A stretch of 60,898 bases of DNA, taken from the NCBI GenBank assembly GCA_934394855.1, contig CAKRRH010000009.1, forward strand, positions 1 through 60,898, read 5' to 3'. A model generated the notes under the pieces. The model ran no database searches, had not been told where the DNA came from, and worked only from the letters and a program-made list of their open reading frames with translations. Shown piece by piece: positions 2,521-10,998 of the stretch. Each line of letters opens with the position of its first letter. Positions within the stretch are counted from its first letter, which is position 1. Both the position numbers and the translations under genes were made by a program. The DNA comes from an uncultured Eubacteriales bacterium. Its GTDB lineage: Bacteria > Bacillota > Clostridia > Oscillospirales > Acutalibacteraceae.

Positions 2521-3201
2521 TTAGCCAATCTGTCCAAAATCATCATTCAGAACGAACCTGTTTTTATCAAACGACAAAATGCCTTCATCCCTCATTTTGC
2601 AAAGCTCTTTTGACATTGCACTTCGCTCGACCGACAGATAATCGGCAAGCTGTTGGCGGTTAAACTGAATTTGAAAGTCGGCGCTGTTTGACGCTTGCGC
2701 CTGCATTGACAAAAACGACATCAGCTTTGATCTGGTCGTGCGTTGAGAAATATTGTTTATTTTCTCGTTAAGCCTCAGATTTTTCTCGGCAAGACAAGCA
2801 ACCAAATTTGATATTATGCGAGAACGAATTTCGCAAGCGGCTCTCTCGGTGCTGAGCAGCTTTTTCGCATTTATGAACACAACCAGAGTCGGCTCGTTTG
2901 CCGTGACGATCACCGATGATTTTGCACCCAAAATCACAGCATAGCTTTCGGCAAACATTTGCGGCGATTTCAGCTTTGCGATAATGTTGCGATTGCCCCA
3001 AAAATCTTCCTTTGAAACGGTGACGCTGCCGCTTACAATTATGCCGAACGAAGTGACATCATCACCCATATTCATCATAATTTCGTCTTTTTTAAACGAT
3101 TTTTCAAAAAAATCAAGACATTTTAAAGCCGATTTTACTTCATTTTCATTCAAATTCGCAAATAAACGGCTCATTTTCAATTTTTCAAAAATACTTTGCA
3201 T
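2521..3201 (-). CDS. Crp/Fnr family transcriptional regulator
   Basis: N-terminal cNMP-binding beta-roll and C-terminal HTH (RQQLADYLSVERSAMSKELCKMRDEG). Start at MQSIFEKL (ATG 3201) follows GAAAGG RBS. Confidence 0.8.
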   Translation of the reverse strand: MQSIFEKLKMSRLFANLNENEVKSALKCLDFFEKSFKKDEIMMNMGDDVTSFGIIVSGSVTVSKEDFWGNRNIIAKLKSPQMFAESYAVILGAKSSVIVTANEPTLVVFINAKKLLSTERAACEIRSRIISNLVACLAEKNLRLNEKINNISQRTTRSKLMSFLSMQAQASNSADFQIQFNRQQLADYLSVERSAMSKELCKMRDEGILSFDKNRFVLNDDFGQIG

Positions 3202-3302
3202 TTTTATCGCCTTTCGTTGTTTTTGCAACAGACATTACAGTTTGATTCTATTATAATATGCTCAGAAAGTCAATAAGCAAACACACAAAAAGGAGATTTA
3301 TC

Positions 3303-4025
3303 ATGAAAAGACGAATTATTGAAATAGACGAAGAAAAATGCAACGGATGCGGAGCTTGTGCGACCGCTTGCCATGAAGGCGCAATCGAAATGGTCGACGG
3401 CAAAGCAAAGCTCATGCGTGATGATTACTGCGACGGGCTCGGCGACTGCCTGCCGTCATGCCCGACGGGTGCAATCAGCTTTGTTGAGCGTGAAGCGGCG
3501 GCATATGACGAAGCGGCTGTTTTGGCAAACAAAGCAAAAAACGCCGAGAAAGTGAAGCATAATGAGCCCCACCACGGCGGCTGCCCCGGTTCCCGACTTC
3601 GCTCATTAAAGCATGATGCAAAGGCGCCTGTTGCCGATAATATGAATTATAAACCGCAGTCACAGCTTTCACAATGGCCTGTGCAAATCAAGCTTGTGCC
3701 TGTAAATGCGCCGTATTTTGACGGTGCAAAGCTGCTCATTGCGGCGGACTGTTCGGCATACGCTTACGCTGATTTTCACCGTGAGTTTATCAAGGATCAT
3801 ATCACGCTGATCGGCTGTCCGAAGCTTGATGAGGGCGATTACAGCGAAAAGCTGTATGAAATCATCAGCAACAACGACATCAAAAGCGTGACGGTTGTCA
3901 GAATGGAAGTTCCCTGCTGCGGCGGAATCGAATATGCCGCTAAAACAGCGCTTCAAAAAAGCGGAAAGTTTATTCCGTGGCAGGTAATAACATTGTCCGT
4001 AGACGGCAAAATAATCGACAGATAA
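3303..4025 (+). CDS. 4Fe-4S dicluster ferredoxin-domain protein with additional Cys-rich C-terminal domain
   Basis: CNGCGACATACHEGAI...CDGLGDCLPSCPTGAI two ferredoxin motifs; C-terminal CPKLD, CCGG cysteines. AAAGGAG RBS 7 nt before ATG 3303. Confidence 0.6.
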   Translation: MKRRIIEIDEEKCNGCGACATACHEGAIEMVDGKAKLMRDDYCDGLGDCLPSCPTGAISFVEREAAAYDEAAVLANKAKNAEKVKHNEPHHGGCPGSRLRSLKHDAKAPVADNMNYKPQSQLSQWPVQIKLVPVNAPYFDGAKLLIAADCSAYAYADFHREFIKDHITLIGCPKLDEGDYSEKLYEIISNNDIKSVTVVRMEVPCCGGIEYAAKTALQKSGKFIPWQVITLSVDGKIIDR

Positions 4026-4057
4026 ATATTTATTATAGATAAAAGGAATTTTTTAAA

Positions 4058-4387
4058 ATGGACAAAATGAAAAACATTGACAAAGCCGAGATTCTTGTGC
4101 TAAAGGATCAGATTGCTTATCAAAAGGGGCAGGTAGTAAGCAAAACGCTTGCTCAAAACGACAGTTTAAGCATCACCCTGTTCTCGTTTGACAAGGGCGA
4201 AGAAATCAGCTCGCACAAATCGGGCGGCGACGCATTTGTCACCTGTCTTGACGGCGTCGGCAAAATCACAATCGACGGCGAAGATTATGAGCTCGTGACA
4301 GGTCAGTCAATCGTAATGCCTGCGGGTCATCCCCACGCGGTATTCGGTCAGGAGCAATTCAAAATGCTGCTTGTGGTTGTATTTTAA
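4058..4387 (+). CDS. Cupin domain protein
   Basis: 109 aa with cupin motifs (G..S.H.....E......G, PAGHPHAV). Confidence 0.6.
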   Translation: MDKMKNIDKAEILVLKDQIAYQKGQVVSKTLAQNDSLSITLFSFDKGEEISSHKSGGDAFVTCLDGVGKITIDGEDYELVTGQSIVMPAGHPHAVFGQEQFKMLLVVVF

Positions 4388-4458: not shown

Positions 4459-4629
4459 TTATGTTTTATGGCATTTACCGCTCATCGGGCAGTTAGCGCA
4501 ACCGCAACCGCAAGAGCTTTTGCCCTTTTTCTTGTCTTTGACCATTCTGTAAACGATTACCGCAACGATTGCCGCAAGTATTATCGTTACAACGATTGTA
4601 CCAATATTATTTGCTAACCAGTCAAGCAT
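4459..4629 (-). CDS. FeoB-associated Cys-rich membrane protein (small; absent from ORF track because <60 aa)
   Basis: Reverse-strand translation MLDWLANNIGTIVVTIILAAIVAVIVYRMVKDKKKGKSSCGCGCANCPMSGKCHKT: single TM helix plus Cys cluster immediately downstream of feoB, as in the FeoB-associated Cys-rich family. Confidence 0.7.
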   Translation of the reverse strand: MLDWLANNIGTIVVTIILAAIVAVIVYRMVKDKKKGKSSCGCGCANCPMSGKCHKT

Positions 4630-4664: not shown

Positions 4665-7169
4665 TTACGCTTTAATTTTTTTGGTAAGCTTTGTTGACTC
4701 TTTGTAAGGACGAACAAGCATATATATCATGAAAATGAATACCAATGCTGCTGCGATGAGTCCGATTACATTGAGATCGCCTGTGAAGATCGAACCGAAC
4801 TGGAAGATCATCAGCGAAATCGCATAGGCAAATATGCACTGATAGCCGATTGCAAACCAAGTCCACTTAGCGTTATTCATCTCACGCTTGATTGCGCCGA
4901 TTGCAGCAAAGCAAGGTGCGCAGAGGAGGTTGAATACGAGGAACGAATAGCCGCTGAGTCCTGTGAATGCTTCTGCGATTGCGGCATATGCGTTGCCTGA
5001 ACCGCCATAGAGGATACCCATTGTACCAACGATATTCTCTTTTGCAACAAGACCTGTGATCGATGCAACGGTTGCCTGCCAGTTACCCCAACCGAGCGGT
5101 TTGAAGATCCAAGCGATTGCCGAACCGATTACCGCAAGAATCGAGCTGTCGATTTCGTCCTCTGAGAGCATACGGAATGTGCCGTCTACTACTCCGAAGT
5201 AGGTTGTGAACCAAACAAGGATTGTCGAAAGAAGAATGATTGTTCCGGCTTTCTTGATGAATGACCAGCCGCGCTCCCACATTGAACGGAGAACGTTCTT
5301 GACTGTCGGCCAGTGATATGCCGGAAGTTCCATTACGAACGGTGCAGGATCGCCTGCAAACATTTTTGTCTTTTTGAGCATGATACCCGAAACAATGATT
5401 GCCGCCATACCGATGAAGTATGCTGAAGTAGCAACCCAAGCAGAACCTGCGAAGAGTGCGCCTGCGATCATTGCAATGAACGGAAGTTTAGCGCCGCACG
5501 GGATAAATGTTGTTGTCATGATAGTCATTCGACGGTCACGCTCATTTTCAATCGTACGGGAAGCCATGATACCCGGAACGCCGCAGCCTGTGCCGATGAG
5601 CATCGGGATGAATGATTTACCCGAAAGACCGAATTTACGGAAGATACGGTCAAGGACGAATGCGATACGAGCCATGTAACCGCAAGCCTCGAGGAATGCG
5701 AGGAGAAGGAAGAGCACAAACATCTGAGGAACAAATCCGAGTACTGCGCCGACGCCGGCTACGATACCGTCAAGAATGAGTCCCGAGAGCCAATCAGCTG
5801 CGCCTGCCGCTTCAAGGCCGTTGCCGATAAGTGTCGGAATGCCCGGTACCCATACACCGAAGTCTGCCGGATCGGGTGCTTCAAAGCCGTCTTCGCCTTT
5901 TTCCGTGAAATATTTAACAGCGTCTGTGTAAGACATCTGAACGACATCTTCGTTTTTGCTTTCCGATTCCGGAACTTCCGAATAATAAACCTTCATTTCG
6001 GTAACTGCGAGAGTTTCCTCATCTTCAACATCAACAGTTCCTGTTGCGCTGTCTGATTCGGGTTTATAATTCTTAATGTCGGTGAGCGCCTTAGCAGCGT
6101 CAAAATCTTCTGCTTCGGGATCAACTTCAACAAATGCGTTGATTGCGTTGAGCGCGTCGGTATATTCGCCGTCTGCGTCTTCATATGCGCTTGTACCGAT
6201 TCCGAACAAGTGCCAGCCGTCGCCGAACACACCGTCGTTCATCCAGTCTGTTGCCATTGTACCTACTGTCGAGATTGACAAGTAGTAAACGAGCGCCATG
6301 ATTACTGCGAAAATCGGAAGTCCGAGCCAACGGTTTGTTACAACACGGTCGATTTTATCCGATGTTGAAAGCTTTCCGACATTTTTCTTTTTATAGCAAG
6401 CTTTAAGGATTGACGCAATGTAAACATATCTTTCGTTCGTGATAATGCTTTCAGAGTCGTCGTCGAGCTCTTTTTCAGCTGCTTTAATATCTTCTTCGAT
6501 GTGTGAAACAACCTGTTCGTCAAGGCTGAGCTTTTTAAGAACTTCTTCGTCACGCTCGAAAATCTTGATTGCATACCATCTCTGCTGTTCTTCGGGCATA
6601 TTATGTACTGCTGCTTCCTCAATATGAGCGATTGCGTGTTCAACAACGCCCGAGAAATTATGCATCGGAACGGTCTTGCCGCTTTGAGCCGCTTCGATCG
6701 CCGCTTCTGCCGCTTCCATTGTGCCTTCGCCTTTAAGCGCAGAAATTTCGATTATTTTGCAGCCAAGCTCACGAGAAAGTTCTTCGATGTTGATCTTGTC
6801 GCCGTTTTTCTTAACGACATCCATCATGTTGATTGCGATTACAACCGGAATTCCAAGCTCAGTTAGCTGAGTTGTCAAATAAAGGTTTCTCTCAAGGTTA
6901 GTACCGTCGATGATGTTTAATACAGCATCGGGACGCTCGTTGATAAGATAATTTCTTGCAACGACTTCCTCAAGTGTGTAAGGTGAGAGTGAATAAATAC
7001 CCGGCAAGTCGGTGATCGTAACGCCGTCATGCTTTTTGAGCTTACCCTCTTTCTTCTCAACTGTAACGCCAGGCCAGTTACCGACAAATTGGTTTGAGCC
7101 TGTCAGTGCATTGAACAATGTGGTCTTACCGCAGTTCGGGTTACCGGCAAGAGCAATTCTGATATCCAT
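4665..7169 (-). CDS. feoB: Ferrous iron transporter FeoB (834 aa, with unusually long acidic loop insertion)
   Basis: N-terminal G domain MDIRIALAGNPNCGKTTLFNALTG, G4 NMMD, polytopic membrane domain with gate motifs. Confidence 0.95.
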   Translation of the reverse strand: MDIRIALAGNPNCGKTTLFNALTGSNQFVGNWPGVTVEKKEGKLKKHDGVTITDLPGIYSLSPYTLEEVVARNYLINERPDAVLNIIDGTNLERNLYLTTQLTELGIPVVIAINMMDVVKKNGDKINIEELSRELGCKIIEISALKGEGTMEAAEAAIEAAQSGKTVPMHNFSGVVEHAIAHIEEAAVHNMPEEQQRWYAIKIFERDEEVLKKLSLDEQVVSHIEEDIKAAEKELDDDSESIITNERYVYIASILKACYKKKNVGKLSTSDKIDRVVTNRWLGLPIFAVIMALVYYLSISTVGTMATDWMNDGVFGDGWHLFGIGTSAYEDADGEYTDALNAINAFVEVDPEAEDFDAAKALTDIKNYKPESDSATGTVDVEDEETLAVTEMKVYYSEVPESESKNEDVVQMSYTDAVKYFTEKGEDGFEAPDPADFGVWVPGIPTLIGNGLEAAGAADWLSGLILDGIVAGVGAVLGFVPQMFVLFLLLAFLEACGYMARIAFVLDRIFRKFGLSGKSFIPMLIGTGCGVPGIMASRTIENERDRRMTIMTTTFIPCGAKLPFIAMIAGALFAGSAWVATSAYFIGMAAIIVSGIMLKKTKMFAGDPAPFVMELPAYHWPTVKNVLRSMWERGWSFIKKAGTIILLSTILVWFTTYFGVVDGTFRMLSEDEIDSSILAVIGSAIAWIFKPLGWGNWQATVASITGLVAKENIVGTMGILYGGSGNAYAAIAEAFTGLSGYSFLVFNLLCAPCFAAIGAIKREMNNAKWTWFAIGYQCIFAYAISLMIFQFGSIFTGDLNVIGLIAAALVFIFMIYMLVRPYKESTKLTKKIKA

Positions 7170-7190
7170 TAAATTTTTCCGCCTTTCGTC

Positions 7191-7210
7191 AGTTAGTGAA
7201 CGCTAACCTA
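7191..7210. promoter_or_regulatory. Operator-like inverted repeat GTTAG-N6-CTAAC (copy 1, between feoA and feoB)
   Basis: AGTTAGTGAACGCTAACCTA; arms GTTAG/CTAAC are exact reverse complements. Confidence 0.4.
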
Positions 7211-7254
7211 AATTCAAAATAAAAGGGGATCAAAGCTCCCCAAATCGCCTTGGA

Positions 7255-7476
7255 TCACTGTACTTCAATCATTTCAGCGTCTGCTTTTCTGATTGACAGT
7301 TCATAGCCGCGAACGGTAACTTCGATCGGATCGCCAAGCGGCGCAACCTTGCGAATGTGCACCTCTACGCCTTTTGTCAGACCCATGTCCATCAAACGGC
7401 GCTTTACCGCACCTTCACCGTGAAGCTTTACAACTTTGACGGTGTCGCCGACCTTTGCCTGCTTTAAAGTGTTCAT
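7255..7476 (-). CDS. feoA: FeoA family protein
   Basis: SH3-like FeoA sequence MNTLKQAKVGDTVKVVKLHGEGAVKRRLMDMGLTKG. Start at ATG 7476 after GGAGG RBS; track start is extended. Confidence 0.8.
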   Translation of the reverse strand: MNTLKQAKVGDTVKVVKLHGEGAVKRRLMDMGLTKGVEVHIRKVAPLGDPIEVTVRGYELSIRKADAEMIEVQ

Positions 7477-7508
7477 GAATTGTGCCCTCCTCTGATTTCT
7501 GAAATATA

Positions 7509-7721
7509 TCAAACCATGATTTTTTGTGCCATCTCACGGCTTATTGCAACTCTTGCTTCTTTGACATTTACAATAATGTTTCCGCCGATTGACGAAATCA
7601 CAGCAACGGTTCCGCCTACCACAAATCCGAGATTTTCAAGATGTTTTTTTACCTCGGGTGTTCCGCCGATTCGTTTAATGATGTTATCTTCGCCAATGCT
7701 TGCTAAATTAAGCGGCATCAT
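7509..7721 (-). CDS. feoA: FeoA family protein (second copy)
   Basis: MMPLNLASIGEDNIIKRIGGTPEVKKHLENLGF; AAGGGAAGGG RBS upstream. Confidence 0.8.
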   Translation of the reverse strand: MMPLNLASIGEDNIIKRIGGTPEVKKHLENLGFVVGGTVAVISSIGGNIIVNVKEARVAISREMAQKIMV

Positions 7722-7740
7722 GATTATCCCTTCCCTTTGC

Positions 7741-7760
7741 AGTTAGTACACGCTAACCTT
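7741..7760. promoter_or_regulatory. Operator-like inverted repeat (copy 2, feoA promoter region)
   Basis: AGTTAGTACACGCTAACCTT. Confidence 0.4.
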
Positions 7761-7789
7761 ATGTCAAAAATAATTAGTCAGCTCAATCT

Positions 7790-7809
7790 AATTAGTCAAC
7801 GCTAACCAT
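7790..7809. promoter_or_regulatory. Operator-like inverted repeat (copy 3, overlapping candidate -35 TTGACT on minus strand)
   Basis: AATTAGTCAACGCTAACCAT; a half-site TAATTAGTCAGCT also lies at 7771-7783. Confidence 0.35.
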
Positions 7810-7900
7810 ATGATATAATACACAATCCGCTTTAATTTGTCAAGTAAATTATGACAAAAAAATGAATCAACTGAATAAATTCGGCAATTTATACAATTAG

Positions 7901-7917
7901 ATTAGTTAAAGCTAACT
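7901..7917. promoter_or_regulatory. Operator-like inverted repeat (copy 4)
   Basis: ATTAGTTAAAGCTAACT preceded by an extra ATTAG. Confidence 0.3.
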
Positions 7918-8028
7918 CAATTTATGTAATATATTTTGATTTTATTCCTTTTAAAAGAAACACCGTGAACCGGGTCTTGACCCAATTCACGGCGAATCTT
8001 TTAATCAAACATTTGATGTCAGCGAAAA

Positions 8029-8589
8029 TTAGTTTTTGGCGATGTTGTCCACTCTGTAAACAATCAGCGGAATCAACGCCCATTGGAGGATCAATCCGGG
8101 AAGTCCGACAGCGATGCTGGTCCAGATTACCGCAACATTCATTGCGCTGCCGAGCATATTTACACCGATCAAAATTGCAACTGCTCTGACCGCTCTTCCT
8201 GCGACCTGAGCAACCAGCACCTTTGCAACACACGGCATTTTCGCACTGCGAAGCAATCCCGAAACAATGCCGTAAACACAAAGCTCAATCATCATGAACG
8301 GAAGCATTACGATTTTCGGCATTCCCGTGAGCATGAAGCTAAGAAGCGGACCTAAAGCGCCTGAAACCGCACCCGCAACAGGACCTGCGAAAAGTCCGAC
8401 TAAAATAATCGGCAGATGCATTGGCAAAAATGTTTCGCCAAGCGCAGTTCCGAGTCCCGACACAGCGCCTATCGCATGAAAAAACTGGGGCAAAGCAACA
8501 GCCGCCGCAATCGCCGCAATCGCCGCAATTGTCTGTGCCTTGACAGACGGCTTTGATTTTGAATTATAATTCACAAGTACATTTGTCAT
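8029..8589 (-). CDS. ECF transporter S component (substrate unknown)
   Basis: About 186-aa protein with 5-6 TM helices and Gly/Ala-rich helix packing typical of ECF S components. Start at MTNVL (ATG 8589), 10 nt after AGGAG. Confidence 0.55.
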   Translation of the reverse strand: MTNVLVNYNSKSKPSVKAQTIAAIAAIAAAVALPQFFHAIGAVSGLGTALGETFLPMHLPIILVGLFAGPVAGAVSGALGPLLSFMLTGMPKIVMLPFMMIELCVYGIVSGLLRSAKMPCVAKVLVAQVAGRAVRAVAILIGVNMLGSAMNVAVIWTSIAVGLPGLILQWALIPLIVYRVDNIAKN

Positions 8590-8916
8590 TTCAATCATAC
8601 TCCTAATATTCTTTGATTGATATTATACAATAAACAACCGTGCAGTTCAACATAAATTATAATCTTTTTTGTTAGAATTTTTACGCTGATTTTGTTTTCC
8701 GCAAATATAGCGGTAATTTTTCCGTACAAGTCCAAATAAAATGATATGAGTAAGAATGTGGTTTGCTTATTCATTGTGCATATTATACAAAATTTATTAA
8801 CAATATTCAGCGGTTAATATGCAAATAGTTGTTGAATTTGCAATTAAAGCGTGTTAGAATGAATATTGTAGACAGCAGAAAGAATTTAATTTGCTGTCAA
8901 TCCAGCTACCGAAAGG

Positions 8917-10998
8917 GTGTTAATTTTGAAACAATATGACGCATCAAAAATTAAAAATATAGCGCTGGTCGGTCACGGCTCATGCGGTAAAACGACGCTT
9001 GCCGAGGCAATGCTATATACTGCGGGCGTCAGCGACCGTTTGGGCAAGGTTGCGGACGGCAACACGATCACCGATTTTGACGCAGAAGAAAAGAAGAGAA
9101 AAGTATCGGTATATTCATCTGTCGCATCTCTTGAGTGGCGTGACAATAAAATCAACATAATCGACGCCCCCGGTCTTTTTGATTTTGCAACCGGAACTGC
9201 CGAGGCAATGAGAGCCGCTGACTGTGCGCTGATCGTGCTTTCCGCAAAATCGGGTCTTAATGTCGGCTCGGAGAAAGCATATAAGGAAGCGACAAAGCTC
9301 GGACTGAAGAAGGTATTTTTCATCACAAAAGCCGATTCACAACACGCAAACGCTTCCGATGTTGTCGCAGGGCTAAAAGCGGCATATGGCAATAAAATCT
9401 GTCCGGTAATCATTCCGTTCGGCGTTGATCACAAGGTTGAATGCTACATAAACATCGTTACCGGAAAGACATGGAAATATGAAAACGGCAAGGCAGTTCA
9501 GATTGACCGTCCCGAAACCGGCGGAAAGTTTGAATCGATGTATAATATGCTTTGTGAAGCGGTTGCAACCACTTCCGATGAATTTATGGATAAGTATTTT
9601 TCGGGTGAACAGTTCACCGAGGAAGAGCTTTTTGAGGGCTTAAAGAAGGGTGTTGCAAGCGGTGACATTGCACCGGTTTACTGCGGTGCGGCTCAGGAAA
9701 ACGAGGGTGTTGATTTGTTGCTCAACGCTCTTGTGAAAATTGTTCCGAGTGCGTCTGAAACCGCCAATGAATATGGCGTAAACGAAACGGGTAAAGCACC
9801 CGAGATTCCATGCGACATTAACGCTCGTTTTGCCGCTACCTGTTTTAAAACGATTGCTGACCCGTTTATCGGCAAGCTGTCATATTTTAAAGTAGTTGCG
9901 GGCAAAATGACTCCGAACATGACAGTAAAAAATGCGAGAACAAACGAAACCGAGCGAATCGGCAAGCTGTCGTTTGTTTGCGGTGCAAAGCAAATTGATA
10001 CCGATTATATCGGCGCCGGCGACATCGGTGCGGTTGCAAAGCTGTCGGGTGTTAAAACGGGCGACACGATTTGCGACCCGACAACGCACATTCAACTGAA
10101 ATCGGTCAATGTTCCGACAGCGTCGATCTCAATGGCGATTTCGCCTAAGAATAAGGGTGATGAGGACAAAATCGCACAGGCAATGACACGAATTGTCGAA
10201 GAAGATCCGAGCATTGAGTTTTATCAGAACAAGGAAACTCATCAGCAAATCATTTCGGGTCTCGGCGAACAGCATTTGGATGTTATCATCTCGAAGCTGA
10301 AGGCAAAATTCGGCGTTGAAGCGGTGCTCGATAAGCCAAAGGTTGCTTACAGGGAAACTATTCGCAAAAAAGTAAAGGTTCAGGGCAGACACAAGAAACA
10401 GTCGGGCGGTCACGGTCAGTTCGGTGATGTATGGATCGAGTTTGAGCCGTGCGATTCGGATACTCTTGTGTTTGAAGAAAAAGTATTCGGTGGCGCTGTT
10501 CCGAAGAACTTCTTCCCGGCAGTTGAGAAGGGCTTGCAGGATTGCGTCAAGCACGGCGTGCTTGCAGGATATCCGGTAGTCGGACTCAAAGCAACGCTTG
10601 TTGACGGTTCATATCACCCCGTTGACTCGTCGGAAATGTCGTTTAAAATGGCTGCGGCAGCAGCATATAAGGCAGGATTGCCGCAGGCAAGCCCAGTACT
10701 TCTTGAGCCTATCGGAACGCTCAAAGCAATCGTTCCCGATGACAACATGGGCGATATTATCGGCGACATCAACAAACGCCGAGGCAGAGTTTTGGGCATG
10801 AATCCGACAGAGGACAGATATCAGGAAATAATCGCCGAAGCGCCGATGGCGGAGATGAGCGATTTTGCAACGGTTCTGCGGTCAATCACACAAGGCAGAG
10901 GAAGCTTTACACTCAGCTTTGAGAGATATGAGGACGCACCGCCACAGGTAGCCGACAAGGTAATTGCCGAAGCTAAGGCAAACGGATTTACCGAATAA
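8917..10998 (+). CDS. EF-G family translational GTPase (EF-G paralogue)
   Basis: G1 GHGSCGKTT, G3 DAPG, G4 TKAD, plus EF-G domains II-V. Exact start uncertain (GTG 8917 or TTG 8926 after AAAGGG). Confidence 0.8.
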   Translation: MLILKQYDASKIKNIALVGHGSCGKTTLAEAMLYTAGVSDRLGKVADGNTITDFDAEEKKRKVSVYSSVASLEWRDNKINIIDAPGLFDFATGTAEAMRAADCALIVLSAKSGLNVGSEKAYKEATKLGLKKVFFITKADSQHANASDVVAGLKAAYGNKICPVIIPFGVDHKVECYINIVTGKTWKYENGKAVQIDRPETGGKFESMYNMLCEAVATTSDEFMDKYFSGEQFTEEELFEGLKKGVASGDIAPVYCGAAQENEGVDLLLNALVKIVPSASETANEYGVNETGKAPEIPCDINARFAATCFKTIADPFIGKLSYFKVVAGKMTPNMTVKNARTNETERIGKLSFVCGAKQIDTDYIGAGDIGAVAKLSGVKTGDTICDPTTHIQLKSVNVPTASISMAISPKNKGDEDKIAQAMTRIVEEDPSIEFYQNKETHQQIISGLGEQHLDVIISKLKAKFGVEAVLDKPKVAYRETIRKKVKVQGRHKKQSGGHGQFGDVWIEFEPCDSDTLVFEEKVFGGAVPKNFFPAVEKGLQDCVKHGVLAGYPVVGLKATLVDGSYHPVDSSEMSFKMAAAAAYKAGLPQASPVLLEPIGTLKAIVPDDNMGDIIGDINKRRGRVLGMNPTEDRYQEIIAEAPMAEMSDFATVLRSITQGRGSFTLSFERYEDAPPQVADKVIAEAKANGFTE

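Follow-up and report, generated by a model that had tools for sequence, protein, structure and literature searches.

Predicted single-dimer operators of a DtxR/MntR-family repressor at the feoA-feoA-feoB locus of an uncultured gut Acutalibacteraceae bacterium

Introduction

IdeR of Saccharopolyspora erythraea, a metal-dependent repressor of iron genes, reads its targets in pentamers, each monomer reading one CCTAA (Marcos-Torres et al., PMC8464063). One dimer reads pentamers 1 and 3, that is, TTAGG-N4-CCTAA, and one-dimer sites are bound at ~80–100 nM, with ~78 nM for a DNA that carries the pentamers of a single dimer; the proposed redefined consensus is the 14-bp TTAGGNNNNCCTAA, the minimum for binding is a T at pentamer position 3 and a C at position 1 or 2, and the 19-bp IdeR box corresponds to two single-dimer sites offset by 5 bp (PMC8464063). 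The motif of TroR from Haloferax volcanii is TTTAGGC-N3-CCTAAAA, placed in tandem ~30 bp apart (PMC10783522), and the MntR dimer of Bacillus subtilis recognises an 18-bp operator composed of two inverted repeats of 9 bp, with arrays of sites being bound cooperatively (PMC11882963). Here, we analysed four copies of an inverted repeat at the ferrous-iron uptake (feo) locus in a 60,898-base stretch of DNA from an uncultured member of the Acutalibacteraceae (contig CAKRRH010000009.1; hereafter the window), which is part of a 142-kb metagenome scaffold. The sequence evidence makes it quite probable that the four copies are single-dimer operators of a two-domain repressor of the DtxR/MntR family, likely Fe2+-loaded and encoded outside the window, that would control feo. 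Switches of this kind are known; the one proposed here belongs to uncultured gut Clostridia and does not overturn current understanding. We found no paper describing the motif or its regulon in Clostridia, within an incomplete coverage of the literature.

Methods

Related loci were collected with a FeoB search, taking one genome per species, which gave 80 feoB loci from other species (72–83% identity), mostly metagenome-assembled Acutalibacteraceae, Oscillospiraceae and Ruminococcaceae together with a few isolates; counts for the upstream region cover the 79 loci that reach upstream of feoB. A second sample consisted of 80 metagenome loci anchored on the regulator instead of feoB. Sites were scored with a weight matrix built from the related loci, with a conserved-site cut-off of at least 14 bits, and the background rate was taken from the rest of ~1 Mb of these loci, outside the 1 kb before feoB. 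The chance expectation of the motif was determined from 100 shuffles of the window. Hairpins were surveyed by an explicit search for a stem plus a T-run under strict criteria, with random 110-nt segments as background; minimum-free-energy folding of the entire feoA2-feoB spacer was dropped, as pairing between A-rich sequence and the U-run made it too noisy.

Results

Exact matches to RTTAGTNNNNGCTAAC were found at 7192–7207, 7742–7757, 7791–7806 and 7901–7916, all on the plus strand, which confirms the four repeat copies listed in the initial annotation of this DNA. The mean chance expectation is 0.01 matches and none of the shuffles reached four, while the pattern RTTAGT-N4-GCTAAC has four copies within 730 bp and none elsewhere in the window. 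The looser core TTAG-N6-CTAA matched five times against 0.47 expected, four of the five being the same copies. RTTAGT-N5-GCTAAC, the pattern proposed earlier for searching the genome, has no match in the window, the true spacer being N4, and the right half given for copies 1 and 2, GCTAACCTAA, is present in copy 1, whereas copy 2 reads GCTAACCTTA. Both half-sites mentioned there were found, ATTAGT at 7773–7778 and ATTAG at 7896–7900. The coding-strand form of the motif is GGTTAGC-N4-(G/A)CTAAC, and scanning the window with the weight matrix gave the following sites, feo being the only target that carries them:

7900–7917, minus strand: predicted distal operator (copy 4), AGTTAGCTTTAACTAATC, 20.1 bits, at about −110 to −93 relative to the inferred start of transcription
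7790–7807, minus strand: predicted core operator (copy 3), GGTTAGCGTTGACTAATT, 21.1 bits, covering about +1 to +18
7776–7793, plus strand: weak degenerate site, 11.6 bits, sharing a few bases with copy 3 and lying 35 bp away from copy 2
7741–7758, minus strand: predicted proximal operator (copy 2), GGTTAGCGTGTACTAACT, 22.4 bits, in the 5′ untranslated region, starting 37 nt before the feoA1 ATG
7191–7208, minus strand: predicted internal operator (copy 1), GGTTAGCGTTCACTAACT, 21.8 bits, starting 39 nt before the feoB ATG

The four copies thus scored between 20.1 and 22.4 bits, and the weak site, the only further one in the window, is of doubtful function.

Both the four window copies and 196 sites from the relatives consist of two inverted xCTAA pentamers 4 bp apart. 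All eight half-sites in the window are GCTAA or ACTAA and carry the T at position 3 and the C at position 1 or 2 that IdeR needs as a minimum. Since TTAGC-N4-(G/A)CTAA has the published one-dimer geometry (PMC8464063), its spacing is the same as that of DtxR and the site equals half of a classical box; the earlier view that the spacing differs from that of DtxR/IdeR, and that the operator is therefore distinct, does not hold. The closest described counterpart is the IdeR target at nuo of S. erythraea (PMC8464063), which shares the inverted xCTAA pentamers 4 bp apart, with T at position 3 and C at position 2, and the binding of one dimer per site by an iron-gene repressor, a role that is predicted here. 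It differs in the inner base, which is C for IdeR and G or A here (GCTAA, ACTAA), and in its protein, as the likely regulator at feo has an Arg in place of Gln43 and lacks the SH3-like third domain. Moreover, in Actinobacteria the 19-bp two-dimer box is the rule, whereas here the rule is one-dimer sites in arrays. The best window matches to the canonical 19-bp box TTAGGTTAGSCTAACCTAA reached only 15/19 (copy 1) and 14/19 (copy 2), the former because a stray TTAGG adjoins copy 1, and such flanks are not conserved in the relatives. TroR (PMC10783522) is likewise an iron repressor of the DtxR family with TTAGG-N4-CCTAA geometry and tandem motifs before iron-uptake genes; its binding was confirmed by chromatin immunoprecipitation sequencing, whereas that at the present sites is predicted.

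Using the 19-bp Fur consensus, the 7-1-7 Fur motif and the PerR and Zur consensus sequences, the best matches in 7170–7960 were no better than those in shuffled sequence, in agreement with the initial annotation, which had set these boxes aside. A putative Escherichia coli MntR consensus, for which a literature search returned no paper and on which we do not rely, did not match beyond chance either.

The feoA-feoA-feoB layout was found in all 79 related loci that include the upstream region. At least one site precedes feoA1 in 73/79 and a site precedes feoB in 50/79, so that the copy noted earlier between feoA and feoB is conserved, and the offsets are those of the window (−196, −86 and −37 from the feoA1 ATG and −39 from the feoB ATG), the preferred positions in the relatives being ~−190, −78 and −42 from the feoA1 ATG and ~−39 from the feoB ATG. 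TTAG-N6-CTAA occurred 216 times in the related loci, nearly always in the 1 kb preceding feoB; at the 14-bit cut-off, the density of sites was 2.7 per kb in that interval compared with 0.021 per kb elsewhere. The consensus of the 196 sites is rGTTAGC-nnnn-GCTAAyy with four free spacer bases; the motif is invariant and the surrounding intergenic DNA variable, with no conservation of the bases outside the 18-mer. Across the family the sites have an orientation bias (173 vs 53). Adjacent sites are most commonly 34 bp apart, with a second peak at 107–110 bp: leader sites often lie at −35 to −55 from the feoA1 ATG, in most cases 34 bp past the core site, and many relatives have a distal site ~107–110 bp upstream of that core site. 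In the relatives, sites also stand before genes for DUF2325 and DUF3793 proteins, an ATP-binding cassette (ABC) transporter operon that includes a heavy-metal-associated protein, a gene of the Fur family and the gene of a winged-helix protein, termed type B below, and these targets look like a metal regulon.

The four window sites (7191–7917) are more alike among themselves than to the family consensus, three of them sharing GT after GGTTAGC. This suggests either a species-specific joint drift of the operator and its regulator or copying between sites.

The feo genes lie on the minus strand in the order feoA1, feoA2, feoB and a gene for a FeoB-associated Cys-rich protein, as the initial annotation had it for the first three. 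Their promoter and coding regions are as follows:

7838–7843, minus strand: −35 box TTGACA, promoter scan 11/12 with a 17-bp spacer, conserved in an alignment of 54 loci
7815–7820, minus strand: −10 box TATTAT, from the promoter scan and the same alignment; the core operator starts 7 nt downstream
7509–7721, minus strand: feoA1, 70 aa, Pfam FeoA (E = 1.4e-15), a called gene on the source scaffold
7255–7476, minus strand: feoA2, 73 aa with its ATG at 7476, Pfam FeoA (E = 2.2e-22); the called gene is also 73 aa
4665–7169, minus strand: feoB, 834 aa, Pfam FeoB_N, FeoB_Cyto, Gate and FeoB_C
4459–4629, minus strand: FeoB-associated Cys-rich membrane protein, last gene of the operon, Pfam PF12669 (E = 3.4e-17)

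The TTGACA/TATTAT pair was the best promoter-scan match in the window. When the 54 loci were aligned on the core site, TTGACA-N17-TATAAT appeared directly upstream of it, with an A/T-rich stretch before the promoter, and the operator began 6–7 bp past the −10 box, a position kept in most of the 53 relatives. Because of this conserved promoter at 7843–7815, copy 3 would span about +1 to +18, and copy 2 would be located in the leader at about +50, adjoining the ribosome-binding site; copy 4 lies ~57 bp upstream of the −35 box. Copy 3 had been placed on a −35 element (TTGACT) and copy 2 at the start site before, a placement that the conserved promoter does not allow; the TTGACT hexamer is not conserved because it falls in the variable operator spacer. 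In about eight loci the site instead exactly fills the interval between the −35 and −10 boxes, as in TTGACA-AGTTAGCnnnnGCTAACT-ATAAT. The core site thus overlaps the promoter of a metal-uptake operon, as expected of a single-dimer operator of the DtxR/IdeR/MntR family, and the positions relative to the promoter imply repression rather than activation.

Two further elements were observed upstream. A weaker promoter-like pair, TTTAAA-16-TATATT, is located at 7928–7955 on the minus strand, 10 nt upstream of copy 4; if it were active, it would form a second, upstream promoter with copy 4 at about +4 to +21, an arrangement like that at the core site. At 7880–7889 (minus strand AATTGCCGAA), a short GCCGAA(A/T)-like box was found, and such a box lies 66–80 bp upstream of the core operator in 13/52 loci including the window (e.g. 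L008, L015, L019, L020, L058, L063 and L074), which far exceeds background; it could be bound by another factor or belong to an upstream promoter element.

Clustering of the open reading frames of the 80 loci yielded one recurrent family of DNA-binding proteins, type A, which is ~122 aa long, contains the Pfam domains PF01325 and PF02742 and stays under the NCBIfam cut-offs for MntR. Its closest solved structures are MntR (6KTA, E = 6e-14) and DtxR (E = 1e-10), and it has the winged-helix and the dimerization/metal-binding domains and no SH3-like third domain. In 28/80 loci the type A gene lies divergently upstream of feoA1, with operators in the shared intergenic region. Most members carry EMYL, with a Met at DtxR position 10, and DACKIEH (Cys102, Glu105 and His106); Met10 and Cys102 are associated with selectivity for Fe2+ over Mn2+ (review, PMC11672702). 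MntR (PMC11882963; PDB 1ON1, 6KTA) resembles the candidate, whose nearest solved relative it is, in having two domains; it differs in sensing Mn2+ through Asp8 and Glu99, at positions that hold Met and Cys in the present regulators, and in its half-site sequence. Its array at mneP has a 19-bp period and activates, whereas the period here is 34 bp and the position implies repression.

Across the relatives, the operator sequence followed the recognition helix of the type A protein, although the species compared are related and the counts for regulators and operators are thus not independent. Regulators with SKPSV-x-R, whose Arg aligns with Gln43 of IdeR, were paired with TTAGC..GCTAA in 28/38 sites, while those with TKPSV-x-Y and Asp10 had TTAAC, TTAAG, TTAGA, TCTAA or CTTAA forms and the GC..GC type in only 3/36 sites. 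The operators of this Tyr43/Asp10 class (L001, L006, L010, L017, L023, L025, L032, L038, L040, L065, L069 and L072) are GGTTAAG-N4-CTTAACC or GGTTAGA-N4-TCTAACC, and in two loci with a PAV helix in place of PSV (L014 and L080) the operator is AGTTGC-N6-TTAACT. In IdeR, Gln43 contacts base 1 of the pentamer and Thr40 base 2 (PMC8464063), and the operator positions that vary between the regulator classes are the ones contacted by these residues; we infer by analogy that the contacts would apply to type A as well. The co-variation supports the link between the type A protein and the site.

In the regulator-anchored sample, sites were present in 46/48 loci with a divergent feoA, and in 24/77 loci the regulator lay away from feo and had no sites nearby. 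This latter arrangement matches the window, where sites are present and the regulator gene is absent.

The second winged-helix protein, type B, has ~125 aa, the helix SKPSVHN and a weak match to the DtxR N-terminal domain; it has no metal-site residues and is absent from the window. Its gene follows feoB in ~12 relatives, before an ABC transporter, and was located ~2.7 to 3.3 kb past the feoB start in L005, L008, L015, L029, L037, L041, L058, L063 and L073. A motif-like GGTAAGCnATGGCTAAC overlaps the type B start codon (Met-Ala-Asn), and at 3301–3750 of L114 the type B gene diverges from a type A gene across three operators.

The internal copy is preceded by a further element:

7215–7241, minus strand: terminator-like element after feoA2, consisting of the hairpin GGGGAGCTTTGATCCCC (7241–7225) and a T-run, from the terminator scan

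This element has the G+C-rich stem-loop and U-run of an intrinsic terminator. A hairpin with a T-run was found in 27/51 loci with an internal operator compared with 1/29 without one and 5.5% of random segments, and in 22 of these 27 loci the stem ends 15–17 nt before the internal operator (16 nt in the window). The internal site itself lies at −33 to −50 from the feoB ATG in most of the 50 relatives that carry one, and in about six Tyr43-group loci feoB is preceded by the group's own operator variant and by no hairpin. Two cultured relatives, Ruminococcoides intestinale CLA-JM-H38 (L054) and Ruminococcus sp. YE282 (L041), possess the full set of elements.

Discussion

The idea put forward in the initial annotation, that these repeats are repressor operators of a DtxR-related metal regulator, is supported by the conservation and co-variation found here, and that interpretation is partly upheld: its central idea, a DtxR-related repressor of feo, was correct, whereas its view of the spacing and its promoter assignment were not. 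A metal-loaded repressor, most likely carrying Fe2+, would bind GGTTAGC-N4-(G/A)CTAAC, each site taking up a single dimer. At the core site over the transcription start, it would block initiation at a strong sigma-70-type promoter, and the leader site 50 bp downstream and the site ~110 bp upstream would add occupancy. The site between feoA2 and feoB, 16 nt after the hairpin, would most likely serve as a second checkpoint that stops read-through into feoB, and the ferrous-iron uptake operon would most likely be shut off when iron is plentiful. Observed directly are the sites with their clustering, positions and conservation, the conserved promoter, and the neighbouring regulator gene of the relatives, whose helix matches the operator; the binding of this regulator in the organism of the window, iron as its signal and a roadblock at the internal site are inferred.

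Several points weigh against this interpretation. Neither Pfam on 30 open reading frames nor tblastn with 33 DtxR-like proteins from relatives found a gene of the DtxR family in the 60.9-kb window that the search covered; the initial annotation had proposed looking for such a gene, and the cognate protein is consequently taken from other species. All four window sites have an A instead of the usual G before CTAA and the same orientation, an asymmetry not obviously explained by a symmetric homodimer. The type B protein, linked to feo in ~12 relatives, could share or compete for the sites. Finally, in roadblock studies the polymerase halts ~14 bp before a bound operator. A roadblock that boosts termination was downgraded as an explanation of the internal site, whose geometry it fits poorly because a polymerase halted at that distance has not yet transcribed the U-tract.

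Separate control of feoB through the internal copy, as suggested in the initial annotation, is plausible, and it could take two forms. In our reading, the hairpin would act as a leaky terminator, reducing feoB in relation to feoA, and bound repressor would block the polymerases that read through. The main alternative to such a block would be an unrecognised feoB promoter: feoA1-feoA2 would end at the hairpin and feoB would be an iron-regulated unit of its own, with copy 1 (7191–7208) as the operator of its promoter. The terminator-like hairpin before the internal site in 27/51 loci would fit this arrangement, as would the TATTTT-like stretch after the hairpin and the start-codon distance of ~−39 nt that the internal site shares with the feoA1 leader site. 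However, the 51 loci aligned on the internal operator showed no conserved −35/−10 elements, while the same procedure at the core operator revealed TTGACA and TATAAT plainly, and the operator variant in about six loci stands before feoB without any hairpin; we therefore regard a separate promoter as unlikely.

Roadblock repression by operators inside transcription units is known for LacI O2, CodY and CcpA. The internal copy resembles these in being a repressor site downstream of the promoter, within or between operon genes, and differs in its fixed position 15–17 nt after a terminator-like hairpin and directly before the ribosome-binding site, for which we know of no described example. Tentatively, and with little confidence, the hairpin and the operator 15–17 nt downstream might be a dedicated module in which the iron-loaded repressor acts on elongating, terminating or post-termination sliding polymerase and so sets the feoB:feoA ratio. 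If true, the module would represent a repressor-controlled read-through that is not described for proteins of the DtxR family. The pairing of terminator and operator is the only part that might prove unusual.

The Crp/Fnr family reads 5-N6-5 palindromes, and GTTAG-N6-CTAAC shares the 16-bp layout of a CRP site; a Crp/Fnr-family gene (3228–2521) lies 1.2 kb beyond the operon. This regulator, or else type B, might then be the factor that binds the sites, the latter in view of its linkage to feo in the relatives and of the three sites between the type B and type A genes in L114. Yet the Crp/Fnr gene recurs in only 1/80 related loci, and the arms match the CRP and FNR consensus sequences (TGTGA-N6-TCACA and TTGAT-N4-ATCAA) at chance level; type B resembles DtxR weakly and in the N-terminal domain only, without the metal-site residues, and is missing from the window. 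The co-variation of helix and operator favours type A as the binder, and another factor at these sites is improbable. Since it is not a conserved neighbour of feo, the Crp/Fnr gene was discarded as a candidate for the regulator.

Hairpins in the RNA, GGUUAGC-N4-GCUAACC, acting on mRNA stability or translation in the leader and before feoB, would agree with three of the four window copies being transcribed, with the orientation preference among the sites and with the fixed distance of the leader and internal sites from the ribosome-binding sites, but they are highly improbable given that the arm sequence is conserved without compensatory changes and the loop is free to vary, that some sites lie upstream of the −35 box or within the −35/−10 spacer, parts that are not transcribed from the feo promoter, that the operator follows the recognition helix, that the window copies would form stems of only 5 bp, and that Rfam gave no match, either at the gathering score across the window or at E ≤ 1 within 7100–9000.

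A repressor bound to operators over and around the promoter remains our preferred interpretation. It makes the control of iron uptake in a large group of uncultured Clostridia from gut and rumen (Acutalibacteraceae, Oscillospiraceae and Ruminococcaceae) concrete and open to testing, the likely sensor being a short MntR-like protein with iron-type ligands. With the operator defined, regulons can be predicted by scanning genomes. The changes in the recognition helix (Arg, Tyr, Ser to Ala), paired with changes in operator bases, would provide a ready-made system for studying the DNA specificity of the DtxR family, and an operator placed after a terminator and before feoB raises a small question of control within an operon.

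As to the surroundings of the operon, a gene for the S component of an energy-coupling factor (ECF) transporter (8598–8029) lies upstream of feo and is separated from it by a strong terminator at 7994–7961. Leaders of ECF substrate-binding components of ~320 bp often contain a riboswitch; no Rfam match and no riboswitch were found in the ~320-bp spacer at 8599–8916, which separates the S-component gene from a divergent EF-G-like gene (8917–10998). The weight-matrix scan placed no operator site in the cluster at 2521–4387, directly beyond the feo operon, where the Crp/Fnr-family gene is divergent from genes for a 4Fe-4S protein and a cupin.

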